A stretch of 64,000 bases of DNA. It comes from Psammoneis japonica (taxonomy: Eukaryota). Below, one piece after another: positions 897 to 44,572 of the stretch. The notes beneath the pieces were generated by a model. The model was not told the origin of the DNA. It saw nothing but the letters and a program-made list of their open reading frames with translations, and searched no databases. The position numbers and the translations under genes are program-made. The number at the start of each line of letters is the position of its first letter. Position 1 is the stretch's first letter. Location of the stretch: assembly GCA_008632985.1 (NCBI GenBank), contig QPGO01000191.1, positions 62,001 to 126,000 of the forward strand, in the 5' to 3' direction.

Positions 897-953
897 CTCA
901 CAACTTTGATCTCAACAGAGTCCCTCACAACTTTGATCTCAACAGAGTCCCTC
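897..953. repeat. 27-bp perfect tandem duplication
   Basis: ctcacaactttgatctcaacagagtcc at 897-923 and 924-950. Confidence 0.9.
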
Positions 954-1354
954 TACTCTACACTCTCTAGCTAGTAGAGTAGAGCTACATTACTATGAGA
1001 GAGATAACGGGCAGGGGACACCAAACGACATCGCCAGTGAATGAGAACTCGTTGCGATCATCGGTCGTCTGCAAGACGCTCCGTACATAAATCGTTTAGA
1101 CGTACCGTACAGACAGACCGAAGCTTGTAAAGTGACGCGAGCAAGAAGTTCGGACACTCGATTATTCGACATCTTTCTGTCGAACAGCGGCCATGACAAC
1201 TGCAACGCAGCGGCATAAGGAACCCTTCTACTCTCACGCTGTTCAATATACTGACAAAGTCTTGCTTATACGTTGTACCCTGGAAAGATAAGGCTTTTGT
1301 GAAAGCGTCCAGACGAATCCGCACAACTACAGCCACAATACACACACACGCATC

Positions 1355-2113: not shown

Positions 2114-2233
2114 CTCTGCCTAATTCCGTGCAATATTTTTGCCATATCGTACTTATAACTCTATTTTACATGAAACCAATAAAAATATCTTCAGTTTAGT
2201 TGTATGTACTGTAGTGATTAGCCAATCATTTGC

Positions 2234-3490: not shown

Positions 3491-3599
3491 GGTGAGATCG
3501 GTTTTGATGTGTGTGTTCGCATGTCGGATGGAAAGTTTCGGATACCGAGATCCGGGTTGCCAAGCTTTCCTGGTTGTTCTCTACCCGCTTCTTTTTTCG

Positions 3600-18948: not shown

Positions 18949-19413
18949 AACTTAGTTACTATATCTACCGTTTACTGTAGTACTATAGCTATAGAGTTTT
19001 AGACAGATGATTCGTATCCAACAGAGTGCGTAACCAGCACAAAATGCTCCGTCTCTCACGCACAGTCTCCACCGTGAGCCTCTGCGAGACAATCGAGCGT
19101 CTCACGTCTGTCTTCGCGCTTAAGTCGTAAAAGCGGGATGATTTAATGTCAAAATAATGTAAGTCTCCTCTTGATACGAAGGTCTTGGCGATGGGACGTG
19201 GGGCGGTGGTCCTTCATACGTCGCAAGCCCAGAGCAACAGCGTGACTCAAGCGAAGTCAGCAGAGCATGAAAGATGTTAATGTTGTAGATTGGTGTTGTT
19301 TTAATTGCCTCTTTTCGCTTTTGGAATGATTGGCATCGCGCGTTTTTTAAAGACAGTAGCAGGGTCCGGCCTGGAGGAGCATTCGTGGATACGGTGACCG
19401 GCAGTCCTGGGAA

Positions 19414-20518
19414 TTATTTACTGCACTTCCCATTTGCTTTGCACCAGCCACTGCAGCAATCAGCGGTGTTTTGCGAGGGGGTGGAGCACGGGCATTGTTC
19501 CACCACAACCCGAGGGCGGTCCGGGCCCTGCACCTCCGCCATCAACAGGCCCACACGATCCTTTATTTGGGTGCCCACTCCATTTGCACACAGAACCACC
19601 GAAAGCGTCGTTGCATGCCGATTTGGGCACAATGCCTTCACAAACGATAGGAATCGGAGAAGTCGACGGAGCTGGGGACGATGTCGGCAATGGATCCAAC
19701 TCGTTGAGGACGAGAGCGTCTTTCCAGTGCACCTCCGTGTCGGACGACCCGTCGGATCGGAGAAAGCAGACGTTGCGCGGACCCAGGACCGTGTCGCCAT
19801 CGCTCTGTGCGCATTCTGCTGGGACGGTGGACGAGCTTGTGCTCAACCACTCGCCAGATTTGTCGGTGTACGAGTGTCTTAGGACCCAGCTCCCGTCGCC
19901 AACCTCATCAAGGTAAAGTTTCAGCTGTACCTCGTCGTTGTTCGAGCCGGTCGTTGTGGCTGTGAACCTCATCCCGATCCAGGTGTTCATTGGGACGCCG
20001 TTGACAAAGTACGGGACTCTCTTCGATGGGCTGTAAACTGTGCCACCCGACCCATGGTAATACTCCTTCTGGAACGACAGCTCGCCCGTCTGCCAGTAGA
20101 TTCTTGCGTAGTATCCCATTGCCTCGCAGCCGTCGGTGCTGTACAGATCGTGATTGGACCGGGTCACCAGGGTAAGGCCGGAGTAGCTCTTCAGGTTGCC
20201 AGCTTGGACGAACATTCCGTACACCTGGAAGTCGGTATTCTCCCACCCTGCCACATCCGATGAGTGGCTGATGTAAAGGCGGGGGCTTGCGGACATCTTG
20301 CAGATTCCATTGCCCAGTGTGATGCTGCCCGACCCTCGCATCATAGTTCGGCTGTCGTTCGGGTCGACTTCAAATGCATTATCGAGGGTCCGTATGGTCC
20401 CGCCCCATGCATCGTACCAATCCCCGACCGCGTCCGAGCGAAGCAGAAACAGAGGCGACAGAAGCGTCGTTCTGAATCCAAATAATCTCATCGTGATGGT
20501 GATGCTCAGTATGATCAC
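19414..20518 (-). CDS. Secreted protein: beta-rich domain, PT/PS linker and Cys-rich C-terminal module (frameshift near 19495)
   Basis: Hydrophobic N-terminus; Gly/aromatic-rich core (YYARIYWQTGELSFQKEYYH); PTSSPAPSTSP linker; tail PCS...DCCSGWCKANGKCSK* in another frame. Confidence 0.7.
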
Positions 20519-22276
20519 AACATCTCACAATTTCGCAGATCGCAGAACATTGGTGTCATCAAGGTGACTCAAACACGACGGTGCACGGTGACCTCATGCG
20601 CGATTCGCGTTCGGTTTCCTGCCGTCATTTTGAATGGCCTTCTTCATTCTTGCCTTCTTTTCAGCTTTTCCTCACAATCTCTCATTGAATCTGTTGTCAC
20701 TGACCCCATTGTTAGTAATGCCATCCTCGGGTTAGACCGAGGTTTTCCTCTTTGACTTCTTGATGTTCCTGCATCTGCCATCAAGCTTCCAATGCTTGGA
20801 AAGATTGCTCAACAGCGCCAGCCAGGTCTTGGAGTTTTTTTTTTCTGGCGGCGTCACACTGGGAAGTGGACCAGCAGTTTGCAAGGTGCCAGTGTAAATG
20901 AACAGAGCAGCATGCAGCACTTTTCACTCTGGGTGTGCAGCGATGAGTGGCCTTTTTGAAAACCGGTAAAGCGGGTCAAGGGGGAGAATTGGGTCATTCC
21001 AGCAGATTGGCAGACCCTCAGCCAAGGCTGGGCACACAAGAAGCAACCCACAATGAAAAAAGGCAGCTTTGAAGTTGACCCAAGATCACAGCTATGCTCC
21101 TTTCCATGAGAGCAGTGTGCTGCACAAGCAATTGTCTCAGAAAGGCCTGGATGTGGTGCAGACTCCATGGCTTCCCGCCCCACAACACAGCGTCATGGGC
21201 ACTCTCACAGTGTTGGGAGTCTGTGATGATGATGTTGCAGAGTCTGCAATGAATTGTCAAAACCACAACACTGCAAACGTCCATTGTGAAACCTGCAGCA
21301 TTGTCCGCGGTGCTCCTCCTGCTTGTGCACTGCCCACATCTCTCCTGATGTTGCCAAAACACATGGTCAATTGCTGTGCTGCATGTTGTTTGTTTGGACT
21401 TTCAAAACAACATCTGAGTTGGATCCAGATCTTCATGGACACTGCACAACATGCAAGGCATCCTCAAACACATGCAAACACACACCAAAAAGATCCAGAT
21501 CTGATCTGTGGGTGCAGCATCTTCAACTTTGTTGAGCAGTTTTGGGACACTGCACACAACTGTTGCTGGATTTTCTGCACGAACTTCTTCATGCATGACT
21601 TTGGATGCAGCATGGCACGTTTTCTGGAGGAATTGCTGGAAACAGGGTTTCCCAGTTGCATTGTTGGAGTTTTCACCTTTTTCCAGGTGAATTTGTGGGT
21701 CTTCCTTCTTGGACATTGCTGGGTTTCATTCCTGCATGCCAACCACTGTCTCACACATGTTTCTGGGTTTGAGGGCACCTCCAATCTTCTGGGGAGCAAC
21801 CCATTGCCAGAGCTCCAGGAATGAACTGGTGCCCTCCTCCACCAGCATTCCTGGACTGTGCTTCAGGCACAGCATTGTTCTCATCTGGGGCCTGTGGTGC
21901 AATGCCGCGTGCATCAACAGAGAGTCAAGTGGAGCGCAACAAAATGATCCAAGTCAGTGCATGTTGGTGGAACTGGCTTTCCATGTGGCACTCCACCACA
22001 CAGTTTCTTCTGATTCTGAATGCAGCAAACATTTGATCATCAAGCCCCATCCATGGTTTTCTCATCCTGTTGGGTGCGGGACAAGACTTGCAGGCAAAGG
22101 ATTCTTTGACATTCTGGCTGCAAGAATGGTGGTCAAATGCATTCTTTTTTTGAGTCGCCAGAAAAACAAAAGAGAAAAACTGTTCTGAGGATAACTCACC
22201 AAATGTTTTTATTGGCGTTTGACTGCATTGTCTCCTTGGCTCTGCTGAAAATGCAAAAAGCAGAGCTGTTGAGGAC

Positions 22277-22748
22277 AGTCGAAGCTCGCGTGTCCGCGCA
22301 AGCTCCGAGTGCCTTCCCAACGTGTCGACTGGATGTCCACTCCAGATCGATGCCTCAGGCAGAATGCAAGTAGATGGAATCTGCTTGCGAGTGGTGACGA
22401 GCATTTGGTCTTTCACAAAAGTGCCAGTGACCAAATCACAAGCTGCCTAGACTGAATCTGCTGAATGCACCCAAACAGAGGTTGATCCGCAGGTTTGCAC
22501 TGGAGACTGGTGCAAACTTCAGGGCCAACCACATTCACAACAATCATCCAAATGCTGCTGAACCAATCTGTGGTTGGTCCAACATCTGTGCGAAGCCTGT
22601 GATCTCCAAAGCACCGCCTGTGATCCCCAAAGCATTCGGCTTGAGAATCAAGTCGACGTGGCGCGAAAAGAATTTCAACAAGAATTCCGATTGATGGAAG
22701 CACAGACACAACAGAGAATCTGGGTTGGTGGACAGACGAACCACGACT
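22277..22748 (-). repeat. 3' LTR of element A
   Basis: Colinear with 28069-28540; termini AGTCG...CGACT. Confidence 0.93.
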
Positions 22749-22894
22749 CTCCCTCTCATTCACAGATTCCAGCAACCAACAAGAAAATCACAAACGAGAA
22801 AGCTCACACAATTGGTGCAAGTTCAGAGCAAAGCTCCCACATCTTGACCGAGCCACAACACATGACAAACAAAGGAAGCGATGCTTCCAAAGTG

Positions 22895-23695
22895 CTGCCA
22901 CCCTTGGACCTTCAACCGGTTGTTCTCGAAGAGCTCTCGAGTCAAAGGCTTGGTGAGACAATCGGTGAGTTGCTCGGCCGATTCCACCTTGATCGCATTG
23001 AACTCATCACAATGCAACCAGAACCAATGCCACTTGATGAGAAAATGCTTGGTGCGATTGGTGATGCGGTGGTTGGCAGCCAGGTGGTGGGCGCCTTGAT
23101 TGTCTTCGAACATGCGTGCACGAACCGAAGTCCTGAGATCTTGGGAGATGTCTGGGGTAAAGACGATCTCAAGGAGCAGGTTCTTCAAAGGTGGGAGAGT
23201 CCAAAGAGCACAGGAGGCGGCTTGACACTCGGCTTTGAGGGTGGAGCAGGAAACAGCTGACTGGAGCTGCGATTTCCACACCAAAGGACATCCACTGAGA
23301 GTTGTGATGCATCCGGTGCGAGACCTCACAGAATTTGGGTCAGAATCTGCTTCGCAGCAATGGAGACCAGCAAAATCAGCATTGACCCATAAATCAAGAT
23401 CCAAACAACCGGTTGGAGATGGCAGCATCCCCTGATCATGCGTCCTTTTCAAGCAGCGGACCAGAGTCTTGACGGCGGTTGCGCGCGACTGTTTTGGGTT
23501 GGAATTGAAGCGTGCAACCTGACTGACGGTGAGGGAAATGTCAGGACGGGTGTTGGTGGACAAGCACAGGAGCATTCCAACGATGGAGGGATGGCTCCAT
23601 TCCTCCTGCATGGGATCTCCGTCCACATCAGTGCCAAGGGCTTGGGACGCCGCAGGGAGCAAGTTCGGTTTGCTGTCAACCAAGCCGGTGGCCAA
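22895..23695 (-). pseudogene. Element A RT C-terminus and RNase H
   Basis: SIVGMLLCLSTNTRPDI, NADFAG, SRTGC, WKSQLQ, FEDNQGA, TKHF, DCLTK; ends GW then CAG (inferred former TAG). Confidence 0.9.
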
Positions 23696-26605
23696 CCGTC
23701 CCGTCACCTCTACTTTCTGTTGCTGGCGCTCTCAAGGCGGCGTTCACGAGTCCCAAGGAGACAAAGGAAGTGGTTGAAGAGCACACCTTCCTGGTCATTT
23801 GGGACTCAGGAGCAAGCACATCGGTCTCACCTTGCAAGGACGACTTCATCGGGCCTCTCAAGAAACCACCTGTCACTGTCCGGCTCCAAGGTGTCGCAAA
23901 GGGCCTCCATGTGGCAGGTGTTGGACACGTCGCTTGGTCTTTTGTTGATGTTGCTGGGGTGCCTCGGACCCTGAAGGTTCCGGCCTGCTGCGTCCCCAAG
24001 TCCAAGGCTCGTCTCTTGAGCACAACCAGTCTCTTGCAGATGTGCTTGGATGAGTCTGTCGAACTGCTGTCGGACCGTGCCATCCTCAGTGGATCCAAGA
24101 ATCGCGAACAAGGACACAGGCGAGGTGTTGAAGTGTTGATTGAACCTTCAACTAACCCACCAGTTGGATGGGCCTGCGCGAATCAAGCAAGTCAACAAAT
24201 TTGTGAGGAGTTTCATTTGACGTTGTCGACGATTGTGGAACACAATCACAATGTCTCACCTGCTGAAAAGGAGCCACTGCATTGGCACTTTCGTCTCGGG
24301 CATCTGAGCTTTCGAAAGGTGCAATTTTTGATGCGTGCGGGAGTTCTGTCCCACTCCGAGGGCACCCGTTGTTTGCATGAACGCGCTTGTTGCATCGATC
24401 GTCCGCCCCTTTGTGCCGCACGCCAATGTGGAAAACAAAAACGCCGTCCCAGCCCCGGAAAGACTTCTCGTGTCGTCAAGGATCGAGCTGGAGCCTTGAA
24501 GAAGGATCAACTGTTCCCCGGTCAACGAGTTTCGGTTGATCATTTTGTTTGTTCCACTCGTGGTCGTCTGAAACATGCTTTTGGAAAGGAGAGCATAAAA
24601 CATCAGTGTTTGGGCGGAGCAATCTTTGTGGACCATGCATCCGGTTGTGTCAACGTTCAACATCAAACTCACCTCAATGCCCATGAAACTTTGACGGCCA
24701 AGAACGCATTTGAGGCTCATTGTCGTGATTGTGGTGTCATTCCCCAAGAATGTCTGAGCGACAATGGAAAGGCATTCATGTCGGCTAATTTCAGGGTTCA
24801 CTTGGAATCTTTTGCTCAAGTTTCAAAGTGCGCCGGTGCAGGAGCTCACCATCACAATGGGGTTTGTGAACGAGCAATGCACGCCGCGATGTCGATCGCA
24901 AGAAGTGTGATGTTGCACGCGGCGATCCATTGGCCTGACGTTGCGGACGCTGCTCTTTGGCCTTTGGCTGTGGACCACGCTGTTGTGCTTCACAACGCGA
25001 TGCCAGACCCATCTGCGGGTCTGAGTCCACAGGATGTGTTCACCCAGATGCGCAACCCTCACTCTCGGTTCCAGGATTGTCATGTTTGGGGGTGCCCTGT
25101 TTGCGTTCTTGACAAAGCTCTCGCCGATGGAAACAATGGCAATCTTTCGTGCTGTGGAGTCATTGCGTGGAAATTGTGTGGGACAGCACCAAGACAAGTC
25201 TGTCTGTCTGTCCTCAGTGAATTTTAACTTTGCGAAAAATGGATTTGACTGTTTTCTGATCAGGTGCATTTTTCTTCAACACATTTGCAAAAACACACCT
25301 GACCCGACAACAGTCAAGTCTGTTTTTGCACAAATTGTGTGAACATGACAGTTTCAGTGCAAAAACGTGTGGATTCTACAGGCGTCCTTGATTGTTTTAT
25401 GCTCTCTATGTCACGGGTCATTTTCAAAAGATTCCTGTTGAAACTGCCAAAGTGGAAACCCCGCGCGAGTCGGCATGTCTGTGTGGGACTCAGCACCGAG
25501 CATGCCTCATCAGTCCCGCCAGTCTTGAGTCTTGAAACGGGAGCCATCACTCCACAATTCCATGTCGTTTTTGATGATTGGTTTGCGACGGTTCCTGCCG
25601 ATGCCAGCTCGTCACCTGCCATTGGGTCTCCGGAATGGACGTCTCTTTTCGGAGACAGTGTGTGTCAACATGCTGTGGATGATGAAGAGCAGGCTGATGT
25701 CGACATCCGTCAAGAACACCCAGAATGTGAGCGCCGATCCAAGGAAATCCGTGAAACCGTCACCCGCCGGTTGCCTCCCAAACCCTCACAGGTCCCTCCT
25801 CCGGCTGCTCAGGCACCAGCATCTTCTTCCGAGGCCCCCTCTCATCCTGTTGTGGAACCCCCGGTCCCTGAGGTGGAGTCTGTGCCTCCACTGGAGTCTC
25901 CCACTGAACCCGTGGCTTCAGACTCGCCTCAGAGGGAGAGAGCACCCGCTGCCAACTCAAACACCCCACCAAGTCCTCAGAGGGAGCCTCCCACCCCTCG
26001 AAGTCTTTCTTCGGATGTCTGTCAAGAGAGGGAGTCACCACCTGTGGCTCCACCCAGTGCACAATGCCCCTCTCCAACCCCAGTTCATCGCTCAACCCGG
26101 ACTCGCGCTGTGCCCCAGCGGTTTGGACACGATGGATCTCAGGGACATGGATGCTTGTCTCACTTCATTGATTTCCATCATGCACACAAGTTTGACCACG
26201 GTTGCAACACACCCATGACTGCTCCTGCCGTGTGCAAGGCGTCGGTGTGCAAAGTCAAGGATCCGGACACGCTGTCGTGGGATGAGGCCATGTGCTCTTC
26301 CGATCACGACAAGTGGTTGAAAGCGGCTGAGATCGAGATTGCAGCACTTGTCCATCAAGGAACGTGGGTCGAGGCACCCACATCCGATGCTCAAACCAAG
26401 TTCCTTCCCGGCACTTGGGCATTTCGTCGCAAGCGATCACCTTCAGGCGAGATCAAGAAGTGCAAGGCTCGCCACTGTTGTCACGGCGATCTGCAGGAAG
26501 GAAGTCTGTTTGACACTTGTGCACCGGTTGTAGCCTGGAGCACGGTTCGAGCATTTTTGGCATTGAGTCTTGTTCTTGGATGGCATGTGGCATCCGCCGA
26601 TTTCC
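23696..26605 (+). pseudogene. Element A protease, integrase and RT N-terminus, inverted relative to the rest of the element
   Basis: IWDSGAS, WHFRLGH, C..C, VSVD, FVDHASG, SDNG, NGVCER, WGCPVCVLD, PQFHVVFDDWF, DPDTLSWDEAM, GTWAFRRKR, APVVAWSTVR. Confidence 0.9.
25134..25440. mobile_element. 307-bp MITE inserted in the element A integrase
   Basis: Splits LDKALADG / KLPKWKPR; imperfect TIRs caatggcaatcttt and aaagattcctgttg; possible 2-bp AA TSD. Confidence 0.75.
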
Positions 26606-27800
26606 AGGTTCTTGGATGCAAGGCATCGTTTTGCGTCCATCTTAGACTTGTGCGCTGTCTCAACAAGTGCTTCGCTCAAATTCTCTTTCACAGTGCGAAG
26701 GGCGTGCTTGAACTGCTGACCGTTTTCGCCATCCCCTCCAGCTTCCAGGCAAGCGTTGACCAAGGCAAGCGTCAGCTTGTGGTCGCACTGACCCGCAACA
26801 TCTAACTCTTGGGCCGCAGTCTTGAACTTGGACAGGAGCTGGGAGAGATCCTGACCGGCGAACTGGGAGGGCTTGAGTTCCTCTAGCTGCTTTTCGAGCT
26901 GCTTGAAGCGTTCGATGGACGTGCTCTGAAGGATCACGACGAGAGCCATCCAGACTTTCGGAAAGCAATCCGACTCTTCCGTCTCCAGATCCAGCTGCAC
27001 GGCCAGGCTAGCCTCCAAGGAGTTCTTGAGAAACTCAGTGGCGTCCCTGTCATTGGATGAATCGCAGGAGTCATGCTTGGCGAGTTGAGGTGCGACAAGA
27101 CGGGTGACGCTCGATTTGGAATGCCGAGGATGTCCTTCAATGCAAGACGTCACGGAAGTTGAGTCCTCGGGGTCCTGCAGGCAAGTTGCCGCATCCAAAC
27201 CGCAGTCCTTGAGATGCTTCATCACGTTCTTCTCAAAGGTTGCAAGATCTCCCTTCTCATCAAACTTGGTCGAAAGTCCGGCAACGCAGCAGGCCTTGCT
27301 CTTCTGGGCAGAAGAAACATGGTGGGAGCGACACTGATTTGGTGACATTGGACTGGAGTTGGGAGTTTCCAATCCGGACCAGTCAGCCTTGGGTTTCCCA
27401 CCGGTCCAAGCAACTTTCTCAGTGGAACCAATGGAGATAATCCCCCCCCATCTCAGGAGCCTTGGGTTTGCAGACTTTCGTCTTCGGCATCGCCGCGGCT
27501 GCCATGGCAGCCATGGCCTGAACAGTGCGACGCTCGTCTTCCGTCATGCCAGAGCCTGCAGCGGGCTCGTCATCATCATCGTCCGAGTCGTCATCCGAAT
27601 CGTCCGGGCAAAGTTCCAAGGGCGGAACAGGCTCGTCGTCTGGGTCGTTAGGGTCCTGAGGTGGTGGATTATCCCCCGGTGGAGGTTGATCCTCAGGAGG
27701 CTGATCCTCGAACACTTCGGGGTCGTCAGCCATGTCCGACAGCGCGCTTGAAGCTGTCGAGTCGGACCAATCGTCTGGGACGTTCTCAATCAAAGAGTGC
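26606..27800 (-). pseudogene. Element A gag region (frameshifted, truncated by the inversion)
   Basis: Acidic/Pro-rich N-part, MGG...WTGGKP, HLKDCGLDA..CLQDP, LKPSQFAGQD; lies directly downstream of the 5' LTR. Confidence 0.75.
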
Positions 27801-28068
27801 GAGCTCGGAGAACTCTCTTGGGTCTCAGGAGGGCCATGGGGTGGAGCAGGGCCTGAGATGGTGCATGTGCAAAATCAACAATGAACCTTCTGGCGGAACC
27901 AGCCATTCAGCTGACGGAGTCAGTCGCAGTGCTTGACATCAAGAGCGCGGAGCGCAGTTGATGAGGAGTGCTGACGGTGTCAGAGCCATTGATGGGGTTG
28001 CTCTGGTTTGGGCGTCCCCAACCGGAAGCGTGGAACATGTTAAGTTGCCCCAATTGGGCGAACTGGCC

Positions 28069-28540
28069 AGTCGAAGCTCGCGTGTCCGCGCAAGCTCCGA
28101 GTGCCTTCCCAACGTGTCGACTGGATGTCCACTCCAGATCGACACCTCAGGCAGAATGCAAGTAGATGGAATCTACTTACGAGCAGCAACGAGCATTTGG
28201 TCTTTCACAAAAGTGCTGGTGACCAAATTACAAGCTGCCTAGACTGAATCTGCTGAATGCACCCAAACAGAGGTTGATCTGCAGGTTTGTGCTAGAGACT
28301 GGTGCAAACTTCAGGGTCAACCACGTTCACAACAATCATCCAAACACTGCTGAACCAATCTATGGTTGGTCCAACATCTGTGCAAAGCCCATGATCTCCA
28401 AAGCACCGCCTGTGATCCCCAAAGCATTCGGCTTGAGAATCAAGTCAACGTGGCGCGAAAAGAATTTCAACAAGAATTCCGACTGACAGAAGTGCAGACA
28501 CAACAGAGAATCTGGGTCGGTGGACAGACGAACCACGACT
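28069..28540 (-). repeat. 5' LTR of element A
   Basis: Colinear with 22277-22748. Confidence 0.93.
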
Positions 28541-30899
28541 GGGACACTTCTTGGAAAAGGACACATGGCAAAATCAAGCCAGCACTTTCATGATGTTCTC
28601 ACCTTGATGCCTGCTTCTTTTGGTTGAGTTGACAGTCATCTTAGCGTTTTTGGTGTTCCTTTCATCAACATTGTTTTCTTTGTCTGCTTCACCCTGACAT
28701 CCATTCACTGCCCCTGCCATGAAGGACTCTGCCACTTCTTTGTTCTTTGGCTCAAGTGTTCCTGCTGGCAGCAATGTCATTGGCATTGGGGTGCACTGTG
28801 CCATGCATTGCAATGTGATGGTGCAATCCCATTGTCAGCATTGTCCTGTTGTTGCTGCTTTTCACCCTGCAATGCAACCACATTTGCTGTTCTTTCATTG
28901 ACATGGCCAATTGGCTGGTCTCACAACACACCAGTCACTGCTGTGTCACCCAGTTCTTGGCTTGAGTGAGACAGCAGAAGAAGCTGCTGGAGCAGGATGA
29001 GACCCCCCGTCAGGCATTGCCAGGTTCATCTGCAACACAAGTGCTTCTCTCCCAGACCTGCAGTCCAACATTTGCTCCCATCTCTACCAAACTGCAGAAG
29101 CTGTTGGAGCAGGAGACCCGCCACTGTCCATGCCTCTGTCAGACCTAGAGATGATGGCCAGGGCCAGGCCCATGTCTGCAACATGCAGAAAAATGCTGCT
29201 CCCACCAGAACTGCAGTCCAAGACACCCCATTTTCTGTGAAAGGTGATGACAACCCATTTTGGTGCTACCCAGAGCTCTTGAAATGCTGCCACAAGGTGA
29301 TCTGCAGTGGGTTTGCACAAAGGGATGACAATTGGGTGCACGTTGCAGGTGAACACAGAATGTCCAGCTGGCTGGTGCAGACAGGTCAGTTGTGAAAAAG
29401 TGCGCAATTCAGCCTGACTGGCACCTCTCTGCACTGGTTGTGACATGCAAAAACACCACACATTGACAACAGCCCAGCTGGCTGGACATGGACAAAGGCA
29501 CAAGAAGCAGAGGGGGCATGCTCAGGCTCTGCTGCAGATGGGGGGATCCTCCACCAAGCCAACCCAGGGGCAACAACCAGAACATTGAGAGATGGCAGAT
29601 GCTGTTGCTGAATTCCCTCATTTGGCTGAGGAAGAGGAAGTGCCTGCAGATCCCTTGCAGCACTGAAGACCACCCACCAGATTTCTCAAACTGTGAAAGG
29701 GGTGCCAGCAAAACATTTTTCAGAAAGTGTGCCAGCAAACAAATCTTGGCATCAGGCACTGTGTTTCATGATGGCACAGGCTGCAAGAGTGGCCCTTCAG
29801 ACAAGGATGCCCACCTGCAGCTGCAGGCAGCTCAGCTTGCCACAAGCCCCCCAGATCAGAAGTGCAGCCAGCTGCCAAATGTTCTCAGACAGATTGCTGA
29901 AGAGAAGAGAGATCTTGCTTGGCAAGAAAGGCAGAGAGAAGTCAGGTGGGTTTGATGAGATTGAGAAGTTGAAGGCAAGGATCAAAAACTTGCATGCTGG
30001 AAAGAAACAAGGCAAGAGCAGAGCACAAGCAGGAGCAACAAAAGCCAGAAATTAGAGTCAGCAGGTCTTCTTCACTCTGACTCTGACATGTGATGCCCAA
30101 CCAAAAGGTGCAACTCTGATGGCTTTGGAGGAAACTGGGAAGGTTGTGGACATTGCCCCATCTTCACCACCACAGTTGCAGTGCCAACAGCTGTTCAGCA
30201 AATCAGATCACAGAGGACAGGCAACAGACAAGACTCCATCTGGAAAACATTCTCTCCACCAAAAAACAAAGACAAAGTTGATGCTGATTTTCTGGCTTCT
30301 GGAGGAGAATGCACTTTGCTTGTTTTCCAGTCAATGAACCTGGCTGACACAGGTGCTGATGCCAACTTGCATGTGTTTGACACAAAAAGAGTCAAAACGC
30401 TGCACAAAGATGCTGTGAAACATTTGGAGCTGATGGGAGCATTGATCTTTGTCGAGGGGTGACATCACATGTTCCAAGTGGCAAGTTGTTGGTGGAAATT
30501 GCCAGAAGAAGAAATCAAGCAAAGTTCACCTTGGGGTCATTTTGTGACCAAAGAACCAAGTGAAAGAATCCCAGTTGCAGCAAGATGCCTCAGAGCACAA
30601 GTGCAAAGATGATGACTCTCAAGGCACAGCTGTCTTCTGAGCCTTTTCTGAGGGCCAACCTGTGATTGTGATTGTCTCCCTCAAAGGAGTTCAGCATTTG
30701 TTGATGCAACATGTCCCATCTGCCACTGCAGAATGTTGCAAGTGTGTTCGAGTTCTGCCATTTTTTCAAAAGCCATGTGTGCTTCTTTGTTGGAAACAAA
30801 GCAAGACAGCTGCAGCATTTCAGCAACCTTTGTTGCCACTTCAGGTTTCTCCAGTCATTGGTGAGAGGGACTCTGTTGCATCTGCTGCTGGGCTGGGGT

Positions 30900-33250
30900 G
30901 TCACATGGCTGATGCAACACCACAGGATGACAAACCAAGGCAGCCACCTCTGTGTCAGTGAGCTGGCCAGAACCCTCAGCTGACAACTGCTTGGTTTGTC
31001 CATTGGCTGTTAAAGTCCACCCCTGGTGGGTCATGGCAGATTGGCTGGAGTCCTTGGCTGACAGCTGCATGGTCAGTTTGCAGCACTTGGGGTGTCCATC
31101 CATTTTCCAGATAAAAATTCAAGTCTGTCTGCTGCTGCTCTTGGGTGATGTTGGGCCAAAACACACCAGATGAACACCAAGGCAATCACAGTGAATGCTC
31201 TTAAAGTCTGTCACATGGCCAAAACAGCACCACAGGCCAAACCAAGATGACCATGGTCACAGTGAGCTGGACAGAACCCTCAGCTGACAACTGCTTGGTT
31301 TCTTGTTGCATTTGGGGTGTCATCTGTGGTCCATGTGGAAAATGCAAGTTTCTGTCTGCTGCCAGACTGGTGTGATGTTGGACCAAAACAGTGCAAGATG
31401 AGCCAAGCCAGTCACAACAATGCCATTGAAGCCCACCCCTGGGTCATTGCAAATTGGCTGGAGTCCTTGGCTGACAGCTGCATGGTCAGTTTGCAGCACT
31501 TGGGGTGTCCATCCATTGTCCAGATGAAAAATTCAAGTCTGTCTGCTGCTGCTCTTGGGTGATGTTGGGCCAAAACAACACCAGATGAACACTGAGGCAA
31601 CCACAGTGAATGCTTTGAAAGTCTGTCACATGGCCAAAACAGCACCACAGGCCAAACCAAGATGACCATCATGAATGCTCTTAAAGCCCACCTGGTTTCT
31701 TTGTTGTTGCACTCGGGGTGTCTGTCCATGGCCCATGTGGAAAATGCAAGTCTCTGTCTGCTGCCAGACTGGTGTGATGTTGGGCTAAAACAACACAAGA
31801 CAAGACAAGCCAGCCACAACAATGCCATCAAAGTCCACTCCTGGGCCATGGCAAATTGGCTGGAGTCCTTGGCTGACAGCTGCATGGTCAGTTTGCAGCA
31901 CTTGGGTTGTCCATCCATTGTTCAGACAAAAAAAATCAAGTCTGTCTGCTGCTGTTTTTGGGTGATGTTGGGGCAAAGTAACTCCAGAGGGATGAACCAA
32001 GGCGGCCGCAATGAAAGCTCTCTCATCCGCCCCTGGGTCACAGGCAGCAAGTTGGTCAGAACTCTCAGCTGACAACAGTTTGACTTCTTTGTTGCACTTG
32101 GGGTGTCTGTTGTTCAGATGGAAAAAGCAAGCCTGTCTCTGCTGCCAGACTGGGGTGAAGCTGGGCCAAAACAACACAAGATGAAACAAGCCAACCACCA
32201 GCCACTCTTTAAAGTCCACCTGCAGGTCACTGTGAGTTGGCTGGAGTCTTCTGCTGACAACCTGGTGCATTGTCCAGGCAGAAAAATTGAGTCTGTTTGA
32301 TGCCACCCTTCTTGTGTGACCTTGATCCAAAACAATGCCAGATGGCATGAGCCTTGCTGACCACAACAAATGCTCTTAAAGTTGAGTGAAAAAGCTGGAA
32401 CCCTTGGCTGACAACTGCGTGGCCAGTTTGGTGCACTTGGGGCATCCATCCATTGCCCGGATGGAAAAATCAAGTCTGACTGCTGATTGCCTTTGGCAAT
32501 GTTGGGCCAAAATGACACCAGATGACCCAAGGCAACCACAATGAATGCTCTCAAAGTTGGCCCCAGGAGCACAATGAGTTGGCTGGAACCCTCAGCTGAC
32601 AACTGTTTGGTTTCTTTGTTGCACTTGGGGTGTCCATCCATTGTCAAGGTGGAAAATTCAAGCACATCTCTGCTTCCAGCCTGGAGCAATGTTGTGCCAA
32701 AACAACTCCAGATGGGCCAAGACAGCCACAACAAATGCTCTCAAAGTCTGCCCCTGGATCACAATGAGTTGAGTGGAGCCCTCTGCTGACAACTGTTTGG
32801 TTTGTTTGTCATGCTTGAGGAATCTGTCCATTGTCCCAACAGAAAAATCATGCCAGCTGTCTCCTGCTGGCTGCCATCATTGGGTGATTTTGACCCCCCA
32901 AGCAACACCAGATGAACCTTGCCAATGACAACAAATGCTCTTAAAGTCCAGCCCAGGCACACAGCAAGAAGGCCAGAACCCTTGGCTGACAACTGCATGG
33001 CCAGTTGGTTCTTGCACTTGGGGTGTCCATCCATTGTCCAGATGGAAAAATCAAGTCAGTCTGCTGATGGCCTTGGGTGTTGTCGGACCAAAACAACACC
33101 AGGTGAACCAAGCCAACTGCAATGAATGCTCTTGAAGTCCACCCCTTGGTCACTGGGAGTTGACCAGAACCCTCAGCTGACAACTGTTTGGTTGTTTGGT
33201 TGCACACAGGGTGTCAATCAATTTGCCACCAGATGGAAATTTCCAGCCTG
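30900..33250 (-). repeat. Degenerate tandem array with about 190-bp period, about 12 units, possibly once coding
   Basis: ccct(c/t)(a/g)gctgaca(a/g)ctg recurs near 30971, 31050, 31276, 31462, 31865, 32061, 32250, 32400, 32588, 32780, 32978 and 33168; minus-strand peptide repeat WTMDGHPKCNKETKQLSAEGS. Confidence 0.85.
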
Positions 33251-34911
33251 TCTGATGTTGCTGTTGGCATGTTGCTGGGAAACAAGGATGGAGATGGAGG
33301 TGGTGCAACACCAGATTTGCCAGTTGGAGATTCGCGTGGAGCAGCAGATGGAGCACCAGAAGTTTTGTCGCTGGGTGAAACACCTGGAGAGCTTCAGCAC
33401 TTGGTGCACCTCCAGAAACAGACAGCAGTGCAGCTCTGCTGAGGGAGCCAACAAAGGCACAAGTCCTGCATTTGATTGGCTGGGCTCATCAGATGGAGAG
33501 CTGGAGGGTGCAGCAGATGACATTGGTGTTGGCACATCACTGGGAACCAATGATGGAGATGAAGGCAGTGCAGTGCCAGATTTGCCAATTGGAGGTTAAC
33601 GTGGAGCAGCAGATGGAGTGCCAGAAGTTTTGTCACTGGGTGTTCACCCAGAGCTTCACTTGGCACACCTCCAGAAAAAGATGGTGCAGCTGCTGAGGGA
33701 GCCAACAAAGGCACAAGTTCTGCATTTGACTGGCTGGGCTCATCAGATGAAGAACCAGAGGGTGCAGCAGATGATGATGGTGTTGGCACATCACTGGGAA
33801 CCAAGGATGGAGATGAAAGCAGTGCAAGAACACCAGGTTTGCTGATTGGTGATTGACGTGGAACAGCAGATGGTGTGCCAGAAGAGTCATCACTGGGTGT
33901 TTTGCTTGGAGCTTGCCTGGCGCACCTCCAGAAGGAGATGATGTGGGTGCTCAGAGAGCCAACGAAGGCACAAGTCCTGCACTCAATTGGCTGGACTTGT
34001 CAGATGGAGAACTGGAGGGCGCAACAGATGATGATGGAGTCGGCACATCACTGGGAACCATGGATGGAGACAAAGATGGCATGACAATGGATTTGACAGT
34101 TGGAGATGTGGAAACTGGGGACTTGAGAAGGTTTGTCAGTGGGGGCTTTGCTGGCCTGTTCCAGCTCCAGGTGCTCCGCGCGGGTTCGATTCCCATCATT
34201 TGGAAATTTGTGCATTTGGCGCAATTGACTTTTTCCAAATCCGTTTTTTGCCAAATCGAAGGGTAAGTGCGAGTAAATCTGGATGGAGGGCCACGTCATA
34301 ATTGGTGATTGGTTAAGACACATGGATCGAGTGGTGCTGCAGCGACACGCTCACAATCTGGTCAGGTTTGGGTTCGCATTGACAGTGTTGCTGCTTTCCA
34401 TTTAGACTTGAGGTGTCGTGCTTGTTCTTTCGTTGCATCGAGATTTATTCGCTTTGTCAGAGCCAAGACGAAAAAGACAGAGCGAAATGGTTTTGAATGC
34501 AATTCGTCATGGACGATTGTTTGTTGTGTTGTTTGCATGGAACGTGCAGCTGTAGAAACGGTGCTGAGCTGTGCGCGATGCGTCAGAATTCGGATTGATG
34601 CGCACGATGATGCGTCTCGTGTCGCTTGTTGTGACATCCACAAAAACAGCTTGCAATGGTGATGCTCGCAAAGACAGTCACTGTCCTCACATGTGCAATG
34701 GGTGTGAAGGGACTGCGGCATTGGGCGACATGCCCGAGCGTGTGCTCGACAATGTTGGTTGACATGAATGACACAGGACTGATCACCCTGATGTCGGGTG
34801 GCTGTGTAAACCTGTTGTCACAACACAGAGAAAGTGCAGCCATCATGACCATGCAGACTCACAGCTGTGTGTTCCTGGTGCGGGACCTTTGCACCCTTTC
34901 TCTGTCACAGG

Positions 34912-36456
34912 ATGGCAGCAGCGGCAGCACCAGCAGCAGCACTTGCGGCGTTGGCCGCGGCAGCTGACGTTGACGCAGTTTTGCAAGTTTGTGGTGTTGC
35001 TGACCAGAACGCAAGGGCGAGGTTGGTCTTCCATGAAGGGTCCACGACTTTGGAAAACATCGCAGTGATGGAGAGTGATCACGATGTGGAAGACATGGTG
35101 CAGAGGGCGTCTCGTCGCACGGTGGCCGACGGATGTGTGACTCTTGGGACTGTTCAGATCAAGAACTTGCAGGCGCTAGTGTGGTGGTGCCAGGATTTGC
35201 TCAAACAGAATCAGCCATTGGTTGTGGCAGACTTTAATGTGGCAGCTGTGGCTGCGGCCCGGAATGGCAGGCGTGTCGAAAAGGAGCGCACAGATTCGGA
35301 CGCGTCGGCAAGCGGTCTCGTAAAGTTCAAGCCCGATGACTTCGATGTGTGCGAAGATGCTTTCTTGAATCTCTTGGCACAGAAATTTGGCGTGTTGAAA
35401 GAACCCCTTCGCTGTGTTGCAAGGACAATGCCAGCTCCGGCTGCATTCACGGATGCTCAACAACAGCGTGTGTGCGAGATGCCATTGAATGGCGCCGCAC
35501 ATGACGAGGACAACCGCAGCGTTTGCCGTGTGTTGAAGGAATGCTTGGTCGACACGGCAGGATGGGCATGGATCGAACCATTTGACGCAACAGAAGATGG
35601 ACGTGGAGCATTCAACGCATGGGTTGACCATTGCAATGGACAGGGCGAGTTGAGCAAGCACATCCATCTGGCTGCGGCAACTGTTGAAACCTTGTTTTAT
35701 AAAAAGGAAGGATCGCTCCCATTCGAAAAGTTCAATGAGAAACTTGCCAGTGCTTTTGCTGCTTTGAACAAATCACCGGACGACCGCAAATCTGAACGAC
35801 AGAAAGTTGACATTCTTCTAAAAGGGATCCGAACGGATGACACTCGTCTCATTGCAGCAACGGCTGTCATTGGCAGTCAGCACCCTCGTGACTTCGCGGG
35901 GGCATGTGCTCATTTCTCATCCGAAGTCTCTCGTTTGCATGCAGGTGCTCAGTTGGAAGCCTGGCGTTGCTCGAAGCGCAAGATTTCTGAAATGAGCCGT
36001 GGTGGCGGCGGTGGCCGCGGTTTTTATCGAGGTCGCGGTCACGGAGGAAGATTTGGACGTGGGGGTGGACGCGGACGTGGTGGTGGCCGTCAAGGCAGAG
36101 GTGGCGACCACACTACGATGATCAATGGAGTCGATGTATCCGACCCTGCAAGGAGCTTTAGCGCTCAAGAATGGGAAAAGTTGCAGCACAATGGAGGCAT
36201 GAGCTGCGTGTTCCAAGCTCGCGAACGAATGGGTCATGGACGCGGTGGTGGCCGTGGGTCTCCCGCAGGTCAACAAGAACGCGATGGGGGCGGCAGGCAT
36301 GCAGCTGAAGCCCAAGTCTGTCAAGATGGCCAAGGCCAAACCCAACAACAGGATCAGGAGCAAAGGAGTGGCGGGCGTGGTCGCGGTGCTGACCGGGATC
36401 GCGGTGGATGCAATGGACGCACCTTCGGTCGGGGAGCCCACAATGGTTCCACCTGA
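34912..36456 (+). pseudogene. Element B gag
   Basis: Long ORF with DGRGAF..W..HCNG, FEKF..KL and an RGG-rich C-terminus; only 2 Tyr. Confidence 0.85.
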
Positions 36457-39400
36457 CTCCTTGGGGTGGCAACAGCTGCTGGAGCATTGGCGCATTTGGT
36501 GCACTTGTCGTTTTTGCTTGTGTTGCTCTTCTTGCTGTTGACCAAACCCCACCCAACATCTCATTTCAAAGGAAAGGTGACAAAGAGGCACATTGCCATG
36601 ACATCAAAACGTGTGATCCGATCGACGAGTTCTGCACAGATGACAAATTTGACGACACCTGGGTTTGTCGCTCGAAATGAATGTGACACTCACGCGGACA
36701 CTTGTTGCGCTGGGGCGAACTGGAAGCTCATGGAGATGACAAATGAAGTGTGCGAGGTGCATCCATTTCTGGACTCTTGCGAGCTGATCAAACAGATTCC
36801 TGTGGCACGTTGTTGCACCGCATGGACAGATCCGGAAACGACTCGTGAACATTTGCTGGTTGGTGATCAAATGCTCTGGTTTGGGACCGACATGGAACAC
36901 TCACTTTTGAATCCTAACCAACTCCGTGCGCACAACACACCCGCACACGACAACCCTTGCGACACCCGAAACGGATTTGGCATTGAAGCTGACGAAGCTT
37001 TCATCCCTTTCAATGCCACGGGGACAATTGTGTCTTTCAAGTCTCGTGTTCCGACGGATTGGGAAGCACAGAACTTGCCGGTTACACTGTTGACAGGTGA
37101 CGCATGGGATCCAGCACAGACAGACATGGGCTCACCGGAGTGCACTAGAGAGCAGGCGGAGATGCGCACTGTTCGATCATCAACCTCTGGCATGCGACAA
37201 GAACAGGTCTCGGAATTAAGGAGCGAGAAGGCAAGGTCCCAAGCAGCACGCTGGGGCGAGGTCGAAATGCAACTGTCGTCTGTGTCTCCTGTCTGTCAAC
37301 TTCAATCGTTTTGCGACAGGCTTGTCAGCTCAGTGAACATGGCTTGTACATGTCGCGACAACGTGGACAAGAGGCAGAGGGCAGTCAAAGATTTACACAG
37401 CAAGGATCGGCACTCGAAGGTTGATGCTGAAGAGCTGGCCCGAAAATGGAGCATCGGTTTGGAAATGGCAAAAGACACTCTCAATGTAACAACTCAGCGC
37501 GGTGTGCGAACGGCGACCCAGCCGATGTCACGAAGAGTGAGGGTGGATCATCTTGACTTGCATTGGAAGCGTCTGAAAGGAACATGGTTTGTGGACACTT
37601 TGACATCCAAGGTGAAGTCTTTGCTCGGCAACACGTGTGCCAATGTTTGCACTCAGGGCAAATTCGTGAAGGTTGTGCCAATGACCGCCAGGTCGGAGGC
37701 AGGTTTGTCTCTTGTTGAATTCACAGACGACGTGGGTGTGCCAGAATGTCTTATGTCGGACGGGGCAGGAGAGTTCACTGGAAGGAGCACCGAATTTGTG
37801 AGACATGCACGATGCATGAGAGCACAATTGAGAACATCAGAGCAGGGTCGGAAGAACCAGAACCAGGCAGCGGAGCGTGAAATTGGTTTCTTGGCCAAAT
37901 GTTGGTGGCTGCGGATGATGAAGAAGAAGGTGCCAAAGCGATCATGGGATTTTGGTCTTGTTTGCGAGTCGAAATTAGTGTCGCACATGGCAAGAGGCAG
38001 GGATGAGAGGACTGGATGTGAGGAGGTCACTGGGCAGACACCAGAGACAGGCGAGCATTTGGATTTTGGTTTCTGCAATGTGGTGTGGTGGTGGGACAGG
38101 CCCAACAAGCCGAGTGCAACTGACGATCCTCGAAGGCTTGGACGGTGGCTTGGTGTCTCACACAAAGTTGGCTCGGATGTGTGCCATTGGATCACCACGG
38201 AAAGCGGGAAGATTGTCTCCAAAACATCGGCCGAGCACGTGACACAGGCTGACAATGTGCAACCGGACATTCGTGTTGAGGTCGACAACTTTGATGAGCA
38301 GCTGGAGAAGCAATTGGATGACACTGGCTTTGTCTTAAAAGGCGATGAAGCTGTGCCCGCATTCATGTTGGACGATCTTGCAATTGACGGCAACCTCGGT
38401 GTGGAACATGAGGGCGGCATCATGCCAGAGGACAAGGAACATGGCAACATGCCATCACCCGACGAGCGACCAGACGACGACGACAAGCAGGCAATCGATC
38501 AACACCTGGGAATGGAACTCATGTTTGACATCGGAACCAACAGTGAGCGACGTGGTGTTGTAACGAAACGTGCAAGAGGACAGGATGGGCGTCCAATTGG
38601 GACTCGGCATCAAAACCCATTGTTTGACACTCGCGAGTGCAAAGTGGAATGTGCCGACGGAACCACAGACAAGCACACAGCCAATGTCATTGCCGAGAAC
38701 ATGTTTGCTCAGGTCGACAGCGAGGGCAACCAGCACTCTATCTCACACGAGATGCAGGACCACGAGAGGAGTGACGATGCGGTGTCGATTGCTGACGGCA
38801 CCGTACAAACCGCTGATGGGAAGGAGAAGAAGAAGATCACAACAAAAGGATGGAAGTTGTTGGTCGGATGGAAGGATGGTGGCTCATCTTGGGTCAAACT
38901 TAAAGATCTAAAGGACTCTGACCCCATTGAAGTTGCTGAGCATGCTGTTGCGAACAGGTTGACGGAGGAACCTGCTTTTGCTTGGTGGGTCACACATGTC
39001 CTGCATGAACGGAATCGCATCATGTCCAAGGTCAAGAAGAAGTGCTGGCGCACGACTCACAAGTTTGGGATCTGATCACCCAAGTCCACGGAGGACGCTT
39101 TGCGGATTGATCAGGAAACGGGGACAGATCATTGGGCTCGTGCAATCAATGAGGAGATGGCAAAGGTGAAGGTGGCATGGTGCGAGCACGAAGCTGAAAC
39201 CCCTCAAGTCGTCCGGGAAGGCAAGGGCACAACTTTGCATGGTCATCAGGAGATCAGGTGCCACATGGCATTCGACATTAAAATGGATTTCACCAGAAAG
39301 GCAAGGTTTGTAGCTGGCGGACACACGACAGAGGCCCCGGCATCGATCACTTGCTCTGGCGTGGTTTCCAGAGACAGCGTGCGACTTGGATTCTTGTTGG

Positions 39401-40788
39401 CAGCCTTGAATGGCATCGATGTTGCGGCGATTGATCTGGAGAATGCTTGTCTCAATGCACCGTGCGCAGAAAAGACATGGTTTGAAGGCAGAAAGGAATG
39501 CGGCGAGTGCAAAGGAAAGGTGCTTGTTGTCACTTGGGCATTGCATGGCTTGAAGAGCTCGGGACACTCTTGGAGGTCTGCACTGTCATCGGTCTTACGT
39601 GACTTGGGCTTCGAATCGACGAGAGCAGACCCAGATGTCTGCTTGCGTGCGGCGACTCGTGAGGATGGGCACGAGCATTGTGAAATGCTTTTGGTTTGTG
39701 TCGATGATGTGCCAATCATTTCCCATCAAGGGAAGTCTGTTGTTGCTGCAACAGGTGAACACCACACCGTGAAGCCCGGCAGCGAAGGAGAACCAGAAGT
39801 TTGTCTTGGAGCTAACGTTGAGAAGGTTCAGACTCAGGATGGGCGCACAATCTGGGCGAGTTCACCGAGGTCACATGTTGGATCGGCGATTGAGACTGTG
39901 GAAGGCCCATTGGATGAAGACGGCAATGGAGAGGTTCTGAAGAACAGTGCAAAGGATCCACTGCCCCCGAAGTGCAAACCGGAACTGGACGTGACGGACG
40001 AGTTAGGCCCCGACTTGGTGGACAGGCGTTTACAGCTGACAGGGATTTGTCGTTGGGCGATCGAGTTGGGTCGTATCAACATCTTGCATGAGGTTTCAAT
40101 CCTGTCTCAACATCAAGCTAATCCAAGGAAAGGACATCTTGAGGCATTGCACCATGTGTTTGCGCATGTGAAGAAACACCAGAACGTCGGACGCATCGGA
40201 TTTGATCCAAAGGAACCGGTGATTGATGAATCTATTTTCAATTCGAACGCAGACTGGACCGAGTTTTACGGGGACGTCGAGGAGGAACTGCCGCCACGGG
40301 CACCGAAGCCTCGTGGTAATCCGGCAAACATCCGTGCATTTGTTGACGCTAACCATGCAGGGAATGTTGTCACTCGCAGGTCGCATGGCGGGATTCTGAC
40401 ATTCGTCAACAATGCGCCAGTGGTGTGGTTCAGCAAGCGGCAGAACACGGTGGAATCGGCAACGTTTGGAAGTGAATTGGTTGCAATGCGGATTTGTAAG
40501 GAATTGATTGTTGCTTTGCATTGCAAGCTTTGTGTGTTTGGGGTTCCCCTTGAAGGACCGGCAAGTGTCTTTTGTGACAATCGCGGTGTTGCAAAGAATG
40601 CAAGTGCACCCGAGTCGGTTTTGCACAAGAAGCACAATGCCATCAACTGCCATGTTGCACGAGAAGTGGTCGCAGCGGGAATTATTCGTGTTGGCAAGGA
40701 GGACACGGAAACGAACTTGGCCGATCTGCTTGCGAAGGTGGTCACAGGAGAGCGGCGATGGAAGCTTTGCTCGTGCATTTTTTGGCAA
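36457..40788 (+). pseudogene. Element B pol (same frame as gag; premature TGA at 39073-39075)
   Basis: ECDTHADTCCAG, HSLLNPNQLR, SDGAGE, AEREI, GRWLGVSH, FDIKMDFTRKARFVAGGH, ALHGLKSSG, LVCVDD, FVDANHAG, SATFGSE, FCDN, NLADLL; ends IFW then CAA (inferred former TAA). Confidence 0.93.
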
Positions 40789-43700: not shown

Positions 43701-44572
43701 GTGCTCTGCTGGGATTCACCCAATGCTCCCTCTGGGCCTGTCTCTTTGCTTTGGGCTTTCTGCTTTGTTGCTTGGAGTGCTTGTTGCCAGGTTGACAATG
43801 ATCAAGTGCGGAGCGGGATTCAATCCTACAGTGCTGCGATGATGGCATTCTCAAGACTTGCTGACTAAAGAAATTCTGGTCCGTGACATCTTGCAAGGAT
43901 TGCCTCAACGTCCTTTTTGGAACCCGAGACCGAGCACCGAGCATGGAAAAGTGGTGTCAAGGAAAGTTGGGCAGTTTCTTTCGTGTCACATGATTCAGAC
44001 CTCGGACGAAGACATGCCCGATGAAAATTCACCTTTGCTTGCTTCTGATGCGGGTGCATGGATCAACCTCTTATAGAAAACGAGGACACCAAGAGGACAG
44101 AGAGAGGGGGGTCTATTTCAGTAAGGCAAATTAGTAGTTGACATCATAAGTTTCAGTGTTGCAAAGCTGTACTTGCTTTCGAACAAATGCTGTCTTGCTT
44201 CAGGGTTCACTCGTAACATTGGACCTGCTATCGTTTCCTTGAGCCGCAGTGACGTCCATGCACCTACAAAAGCAAACGGACATTTGCGAAACCCTCCCGT
44301 ATTGCATAATATCTTGATGGACACTAAACTAGATATTTCAGTAGCATCATTCATTTCTTCCAATTGACCAATCAAAACTACGCAGGGTACAATACTATAA
44401 TAAATCTCTAGTTCTCAGAACTCGCTAAATTCAATTCGCTCAAGGCGGGACTGTTCTACAATTCCAAGTATTGTGCTGTGTATTCCAACTAGCTAAAGCA
44501 GTGAAGGTCCATGATTAATATTGCTCTATACATTTTCCGTTGTGACTAACCAGTAATATGTGTCCCGAGATG

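Follow-up and report, generated by a model that had tools for sequence, protein, structure and literature searches.

Can a single mismatched letter in a target-site duplication (TSD) disclose a mutation process that acts on chromosomal DNA? The question is raised by a Ty1/copia long terminal repeat (LTR) retrotransposon, element A, in the diatom Psammoneis japonica (assembly GCA_008632985.1, contig QPGO01000191.1, positions 62,001-126,000 of the forward strand), a stretch of 64,000 nucleotides (nt) that was analysed at its full length and is called the window below. The left copy of its TSD reads AGGAC and the right GGGAC, a difference of one letter, and the original prediction for this locus was that the mismatch is an A to G change exactly where the terminal T of the LTR met the first A of the host target and insertion had created a new TpA dinucleotide. 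The letters and coordinates which it gave for both TSD copies are exact, and each LTR copy measures the 472 bp that it named. We consider it very probable that a DNA-level process converting TpA to TpG or CpA made the TSD change. Element A and its duplicated target are composed as follows.

22272-22276, no strand: left TSD copy, AGGAC, preceded by g so that its A lies outside TpA; the same as the empty site
22277-22748, plus strand: 5' LTR of element A, 472 bp, AGTCG...CGACT, with 2 TpA remaining
22749-28068, plus strand: internal region of element A (Ty1/copia), degraded and frame-split, with 19 TpA in 5320 bp
28069-28540, plus strand: 3' LTR of element A, 472 bp, with 7 TpA remaining; its last base, T 28540, is one half of the junction dinucleotide
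28541-28545, no strand: right TSD copy, GGGAC, in which G 28541 is derived from A (TA to TG across the junction), the polarity being given by the empty-site contig

Element A spans 22277-28540 (6264 bp) between flanks that read ...ttgAGGAC and GGGACactt, and its LTRs lie in direct orientation 5792 bp apart, 93.6% identical and without an indel. An open reading frame (ORF) at 23533-25224 contains the Pfam domain gag_pre-integrs (E 3.8e-8) together with weak matches to Pol_BBD and rve (E 0.058 for the latter), and a second ORF at 25303-26802 holds the start of RVT_2 with an E-value of 0.0013, under the Pfam cut-off. In relatives of this second ORF, found with E-values down to 4.8e-87, PF07727 and PF00665 are present, and the relatives that are named come from the diatoms Epithemia and Cyclotella. 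The integrase therefore lies ahead of RVT_2, and with its LTR pair, its TSD and this domain order element A is a Ty1/copia LTR retrotransposon.

The state of the target before insertion was sought in Logan contigs of public runs placed on 19000-32000. Run X1, which contains 61% of the sampled words of 20500-30000, is the sole run found to cover the insertion site; run X2 covers 19000-20511 only, run X3 contributed no contig, and the empty allele is known from one sample (X1). A contig of 1111 nt from this sample, with a depth of 54.3, matches 21349-22272 with its letters 1-926 and 28542-28726 with its letters 927-1111. It skips 22273-28541, 6269 bases that equal the 6264-bp element plus 5, and the five letters GGACA match both sides of the joint. 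As a 31-mer graph is unable to make a joint from a 5-base overlap, the insertion-free allele is real in the reads, and the depth of the contig resembles that of neighbouring single-copy contigs (56.8-56.9). At 22272 the contig has A followed by GGAC-actt, so that it reads ttg-AGGAC-actt with a single copy of AGGAC; had it carried G instead of A, the joint would have fallen at 22271/28541. The G at 28541 is therefore derived, by an A to G change beside the terminal T of the LTR. An empty site reading GGGAC was the outcome that the original prediction had named as fatal to itself; the X1 contig was put to this test and has AGGAC, which confirms the proposed polarity of the mismatch. The duplication itself is seen directly, as one AGGAC in the empty allele and two copies in the filled allele, and the insertion of element A is still polymorphic.

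The empty-site contig differs from the window by six substitutions, all of them elsewhere (22041, 22042, 22193, 22198, 22216 and 22228), and by a TT insertion behind 22074. A flank divergence of ~0.7% indicates that the empty allele belongs to another haplotype or strain, and most of the flank differences are changes like those at the element, with CA/TG at 22041-22042 and TA/TG at 22193. No paralogous empty site was found in the window when it was searched with both flanks. Run X1 holds a further joint, from 22273 to 28687, which skips 6413 bases, has 22 letters on its short side and a depth of 61.8; there are unknown letters between its two sides, and it may be spurious or an allele with a small deletion. 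The summed depth of X1 contigs on 22277-28540 is ~600-4100 versus ~55 in the single-copy flanks, indicative of a family that is multi-copy in the sequenced sample. Compared with the window, X1 contigs also have 1-base insertions behind 19489 and 19497, and CA at 20713 and 20716 where the window has TA, the latter two positions falling in single-copy DNA just outside the TpA-depleted block described below.

The LTR pair of element A shows 30 differences, of which all 30 are transitions and 0 are transversions. Nine adjacent CA/TG doubles account for 18 of them, five are singles where the right LTR reads TA and the left reads TG or CA, five are CpG-linked, and the other two read CC/TC and TT/CT. 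TA/TG/CA changes thus make up 23 of the 30, which bears out the earlier statement that the LTRs differ mostly at such sites, and the contrast quoted in its support, aatcTGctTGcgagTGgTGac (22380-22400) versus aatcTActTAcgagCAgCAac (28172-28192), is present in the two copies. TA is intact in both LTRs at 2 sites (GTAG and CTAG) and CG at 19. A CA/TG double can arise from CG when each copy changes C to T on a different strand, or likewise from TA through A to G, and the direction of change was tested with an independence model for the two LTR copies that allows invisible same-direction double hits. For element A the CpG-ancestor model, under which 9 sites are double, 2+3 single and 19 untouched, is rejected on the test of independence (G=23.0, p=1.6e-6), and the TpA-ancestor model, under which 9 are double, 5+0 single and 2 untouched, puts the converted fraction at 0.92 for the left LTR and 0.70 for the right. 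A second pair of LTRs belongs to another element in the window; apart from these two pairs, a self-comparison of the window revealed no LTR pair.

34266-41138, plus strand: element B, a second copia-like element (RVT_2, E 1.6e-10), with a perfect 4-bp TSD, AGTG
34270-34451 and 40953-41134, plus strand: LTRs of element B, 182 bp, CGAGT...ATTCG, with the ends CG...CG

The LTRs of element B show 15 differences, again transitions throughout (15/15), with 4 CA/TG doubles, 5 TA singles and 0 CpG-linked changes, 13 of the 15 being TpA-type, and the CpGs of this LTR are intact in both copies at 10 of 10 sites. Here the CpG-ancestor model is rejected as well (G=21.0, p=4.6e-6) and the TpA-ancestor model fits (p=0.44), which makes element B the cleaner example of the two. 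Coding sequence points the same way: the reverse transcriptase (RT) ORF of element A (500 amino acids) contains 0 tyrosines versus 2.5% in 18 homologues, and all 6 of its conserved-tyrosine columns are replaced, 3 by histidine (CAY), 2 by cysteine (TGY) and 1 by leucine. The direction TpA to TpG/CpA is therefore supported independently by the LTR-pair models, by the intact CpGs of element B and by the RT tyrosine columns.

Both elements lie in a region of distinctive dinucleotide composition.

21001-44000, no strand: TpA-depleted block holding elements A and B and older repeats without assignment, with a TpA observed/expected (obs/exp) ratio of 0.00-0.21 per kb

This range is found in every kilobase of 21-44 kb, versus 0.3-0.75 in most gene-bearing kilobases and 0.35 in the window as a whole. 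For element A the ratio is 0.08 (28 TpA in 6264 bp), with 0.07 in the left LTR and 0.24 in the right, while TG and CA stand at obs/exp 1.40-1.42 and the GC content is 52-56%. The old DNA around element A (21.0-22.3 and 28.5-34 kb) and that at 42-44 kb has a CpG obs/exp of 0.02-0.17, whereas CpG in elements A and B still stands at 0.6-0.96; two processes therefore act here, a fast erasure of TpA and a slower decay of CpG. Old repeat DNA without TpA and CpG occupies 21001-22276, 28546-34269, 41135-44000 and 62001-64000, with a TG+CA obs/exp of 1.7-2.0, and includes tandem arrays of ~190-400 bp at 31-34 kb. In the flank ORFs at 21018-22188 and 28628-31009 Pfam found no domain.

How far, then, does the TSD base itself carry the argument? 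Its one mismatch falls on the sole TpA base among ten TSD bases, for which the probability by chance is ~0.03-0.1, in keeping with the earlier caution that one site is suggestive rather than statistical. The background in the LTR pair is 2 differences over ~374 positions outside TpA and CpG, or ~0.3% per site per copy; by comparison, ~70% of the TpAs in the adjacent LTR are converted, and half of the conversions would hit the A. Judged by these LTR-pair rates, the TSD change would be ~100 times as likely under the TpA process as at the background rate. An ordinary spontaneous transition, at TpA by coincidence, gains something from the evidence being one site and from the CC/TC and TT/CT differences, which show that transitions outside TpA and CpG occur, but at the background rate it would have had to change precisely the one TSD base in ten that lies within TpA, and we regard it as very improbable. 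A similarly small probability attaches to an assembly or consensus error at G 28541 in a TSD that is truly perfect. The window and the X1 contigs do differ by small indels (19489, 19497) and, under single-contig cover, by a few substitutions; two single-copy contigs, however, agree with the window without substitutions over 1309 bases (19000-20308) and 933 bases (28829-29761), and an error placed at random would have needed to strike the single base at which the TpA process predicts a change. Neither the host-derived base nor the LTR-LTR differences ever passed through the RNA of the element, and the change therefore took place at the DNA level. The TSD had been put forward as an internal control for such a DNA-level, context-dependent change, and the AGGAC of the empty allele supports this use of it. 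Editing of the element RNA by an ADAR-like A-to-G activity, fixed by reverse transcription, would share with ADAR the preference for a 5' U/T neighbour (bioRxiv 10.64898/2026.01.13.699255), and the family could have inherited part of its TpA poverty; yet such editing is unable to make two LTRs of one insertion differ, to alter host-derived TSD DNA or to deplete flanks that are not part of the element, and is hardly credible here. Just as little credence can be given to C to T deamination, whether as CpG methylation decay or as a CpA/CpG process like repeat-induced point mutation (RIP), by which the target would have been GGGAC and the left copy would have changed from G to A. CpG decay does act at this locus, as 5 of the 30 LTR differences are CpG-linked and CpG obs/exp falls to 0.02-0.17 in the older flanks, but the empty site reads A, which refutes this explanation at the TSD. 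In addition, the CpG-ancestor model is rejected, the left A follows a G and is part of no CpG or CpA on either strand, tyrosine codons turned into CAY or TGY, and TpA is depleted, whereas RIP would enrich it.

A different objection concerns the boundary of the element, for four parsings are compatible with the filled and empty sequences.

Parsing a: 5-bp TSD AGGAC/GGGAC, LTR AGTCG...CGACT, A/G mismatch at the T-A junction; nothing further is required
Parsing b: 4-bp TSD AGGA/GGGA, LTR beginning with the C found in front of each copy (22276, 28068), the same A/G mismatch; nothing further is required
Parsing c: perfect 4-bp TSD GGAC, 3' LTR with an extra G (28541), no mismatch; the G must be element DNA
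Parsing d: 3-bp TSD GGA, LTR CAGTCG...CGACTG, no mismatch; the G must be element DNA

According to parsings c and d there was no TSD mutation: the duplication is a perfect 4-bp GGAC, or in a variant a 3-bp GGA, and G 28541 belongs to the element (LTR ...CGACTG) or is a non-templated base of the cDNA end. Both alleles agree with these parsings as well, a C precedes both LTR copies, and element B in the same window has a perfect 4-bp TSD. Among diatom copia elements, TSDs are 5 bp long in CoDi1, 2, 5 and 6 and 4 bp in CoDi3 and CoDi4 of Phaeodactylum, which partly have non-TG/CA termini (PMC8147415 Table S11), the TSD of the Blackbeard element is TTCC, and TG/CA termini are absent in 3 of 26 diatom CoDi families (PMC2806351). 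Against this stands C 22749, which follows the 5' LTR, so that parsings c and d need a transversion (G/C, versus 0 transversions among 30 differences) or a non-templated addition; a primer remnant would, on the standard scheme of reverse transcription, be a copy of the base next to the 5' LTR, C and not G. Moreover, only an LTR that ends at T makes the 5-bp terminal inverted repeat AGTCG/CGACT flush, LTR elements do not usually have a 3-bp TSD, and the other 4-bp parsing, AGGA/GGGA with the LTR from C 22276, retains the A to G mismatch. The pol proteins of elements A and B are only remotely alike, and the 4-bp TSD of element B therefore says little about element A. On balance the absence of any TSD mutation seems quite improbable. 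The TSD may be 4 or 5 bp long (parsings a and b), and as both contain the same A/G mismatch the conclusion is independent of its length. A metagenome scan for relatives gave 78 loci, 9 of them with a long direct repeat and none with an LTR pair and both flanks; the nine comprise six end-overlap contigs, one tandem duplicate, one contig-end repeat and one pair from the RT region that is 78% identical.

Another mobile element in the window also bears on the proposed action of a TpA-directed process at the TSD.

52853-55063, no strand: terminal inverted repeat (TIR) element with 43-nt arms that are 95% complementary; probable TA TSD at 52851-52852 and 55064-55065

The TA is unmutated on both sides of this element, which indicates that a junction TpA is not always hit, and this has to be counted against the attribution of the TSD change in element A to such a process, as do the following points. 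At element B, where the junctions are G-C and G-A so that no new TpA was formed, a TpA at 34264-34265, 2 bp upstream of the TSD, is intact, and among TSD or junction TpA sites in the window one of three is mutated. The evidence at the TSD is a single site, and G 28541 is read from the assembly alone. In the LTR pair of element A the TpA-ancestor model fits only marginally (p=0.02), 7 of the 30 differences are not TpA changes, so that other processes act too, and GTAG and CTAG survive in both LTRs although the mutated junction is itself a CTAG. Element A ends in AG...CT (or CA...CT) and not in TG...CA, and neither a primer-binding site (PBS) of tRNA type nor a polypurine tract (PPT) was recognised by eye beside its LTRs; its boundaries consequently rest on the end of LTR identity and on the empty site. 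Finally, the element lies within a block that is already TpA-free, and the TSD accordingly shows action on host-derived DNA rather than spill-over from the element. In the TIR element itself the last 395 bases (54669-55063) are without TpA and a single TpA occurs between 54020 and 55063, while the right flank has 10 TpA per 150 bp at once, giving a sharp edge at 55064. Either the process halts within 1-2 bases of the end of this element, or the copy was mutated before it moved.

A Ty1/copia element inserted into older repeat DNA at the target AGGAC, which was thereby duplicated, and we propose that a DNA-level, repeat-directed process has since turned TpA into TpG or CpA (A:T to G:C, on whichever strand of this palindromic dinucleotide). 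Most TpAs of element A would have been converted after insertion, and the new TpA formed by the T of the LTR and the first A of the right TSD would have been converted as well, giving TG. The TSD change and the LTR changes would then have been made by the same process. Its chemistry would most likely be the deamination of adenine in DNA at TpA, giving a base that is read as G; sequence alone cannot separate this from the alternative, a modified thymine mispairing with G. More generally, diatoms are likely to possess a fast DNA-level mutator that converts TpA to TpG/CpA in silenced mobile DNA, erasing ~70-90% of the TpAs of a still-polymorphic insertion and reaching any TpA in the marked domain, host bases included.

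The open-access and bioRxiv literature yielded no diatom report of a process turning TpA into TpG/CpA in diatoms or retrotransposons, and the search returned fungal RIP and unrelated work instead. TpA erasure is known from one 2026 preprint, which shows it experimentally in the chlorarachniophyte Bigelowiella natans (Mettrop et al., bioRxiv 10.64898/2026.01.13.699255). Of 302 nuclear single-nucleotide mutations in mutation-accumulation lines, 231 lay in two regions of integrated viral DNA, at a rate ~1000-fold above background. Nearly all mutations in these regions were A to G or T to C, all of those lay on TpA, and an ADAT2-like adenine deaminase is discussed. Both systems have in common the change of TpA to TpG or CpA on either strand, its confinement to foreign or repeat DNA next to normal sequence (here the edge at 55064), a long-term low TpA with high CpA+TpG, and a huge excess over other sites (~1000-fold there; ~70-92% of LTR TpAs vs ~0.3% of other sites here). 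They differ in host, a diatom (stramenopile) here and a chlorarachniophyte there, and in targets, which are LTR and TIR transposons and old repeats in P. japonica and integrated nucleocytoplasmic large DNA virus (NCLDV) and virophage DNA in Bigelowiella. The TpA obs/exp of 0.08 marks a far stronger depletion than the 0.45 of the Bigelowiella NCLDV region, the evidence is comparative here (LTR pair, TSD, empty allele) and consists of de novo mutations there, and in older parts of the window CpG decay is superimposed.

In Neurospora and other ascomycetes RIP converts CpA to TpA, which enriches AT and inactivates transposons; the B. natans preprint likewise draws a comparison with RIP. It resembles the process described here in being a DNA-level, transition-only, dinucleotide-specific and sharply local mutation of repeated or mobile DNA, but is opposite in effect, since TpA is destroyed here and TG/CA rise to obs/exp 1.4-2.0; in place of the enriched TpA and lowered GC expected of RIP, element A has a TpA obs/exp of 0.08 and a GC content of 52-56%. 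ADAR editing would mark both LTRs alike and leave host DNA untouched, whereas the LTRs differ and a TSD base is changed. CpG methylation decay has the same end products, TpG and CpA; however, A to G at TpA is impossible for the deamination of 5-methylcytosine, and CpG decay is slower than TpA loss, with 19 of 24 CpG sites of element A intact in both LTRs versus 2 of 16 visible TpA sites. In architecture element A is similar to the CoDi elements of Phaeodactylum and Thalassiosira: its integrase precedes RVT_2 (PMC2806351, PMC8147415), its 6.3 kb and 472-bp LTRs are close to the 6.5 kb and 467-470 bp of CoDi1.1, its TSD is 4 or 5 bp long, and its insertion is haplotype-specific with an empty allele, as for example in Blackbeard (PMC2806351). 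Unlike CoDi elements it has the termini AG...CT and not TG...CA, and the closest proteins found are only ~40-50% identical.

A host-derived base with a known ancestral state provides, through the empty allele, a proof of polarity that requires no outgroup, and this proof is what the present analysis adds. It indicates that the TA-erasing process acts on chromosomal DNA after integration and not on RNA or during reverse transcription, and extends TpA erasure from chlorarachniophytes to a second, ecologically dominant algal group. If diatoms and Bigelowiella do share such a mutator, TpA editing would be a widespread genome defence of the Stramenopiles-Alveolata-Rhizaria (SAR) lineages and a mirror image of fungal RIP, and the enzyme responsible would be a DNA adenine deaminase or a thymine modifier. 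Dating by LTR identity is badly inflated here: the LTRs of element A have diverged by 6.4%, yet only 2 differences fall outside TpA and CpG and the insertion is still polymorphic. As the LTR starts with A and ends with T, every TSD starting with A or ending with T creates a junction TpA, and the junction TpAs of this family thus form a built-in series with which the process and its reach into host DNA could be measured.

Among the genes of the window is a TCP-1 epsilon gene on the minus strand (6884-8359), the product of which is 82-84% identical to diatom proteins (Trieres, Attheya). A dinoflagellate host with 5-hydroxymethyluracil was also considered and was dropped in view of this identity. 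In the three plus-strand frames of element A taken together, 9 TAA and 5 TAG occur versus 107 TGA, and the near loss of TAA and TAG leads to long spurious ORFs on both strands, for example at 22823-23707 and 26443-27372 on the minus strand. The 5' LTR of element B is followed by cTTTGTCAGAGCC, which we take to resemble a PBS of tRNA-iMet type, TGGTATCAGAGC, with TA read as TG. Surviving TpAs have a 3' A in 44% of cases in the depleted blocks (21-44 and 62-64 kb) versus 23% elsewhere (n=112 and 1276; p=8e-8), which suggests an influence of wider sequence context, either TAA/TTA being relatively refractory or TAY/RTA being preferred.

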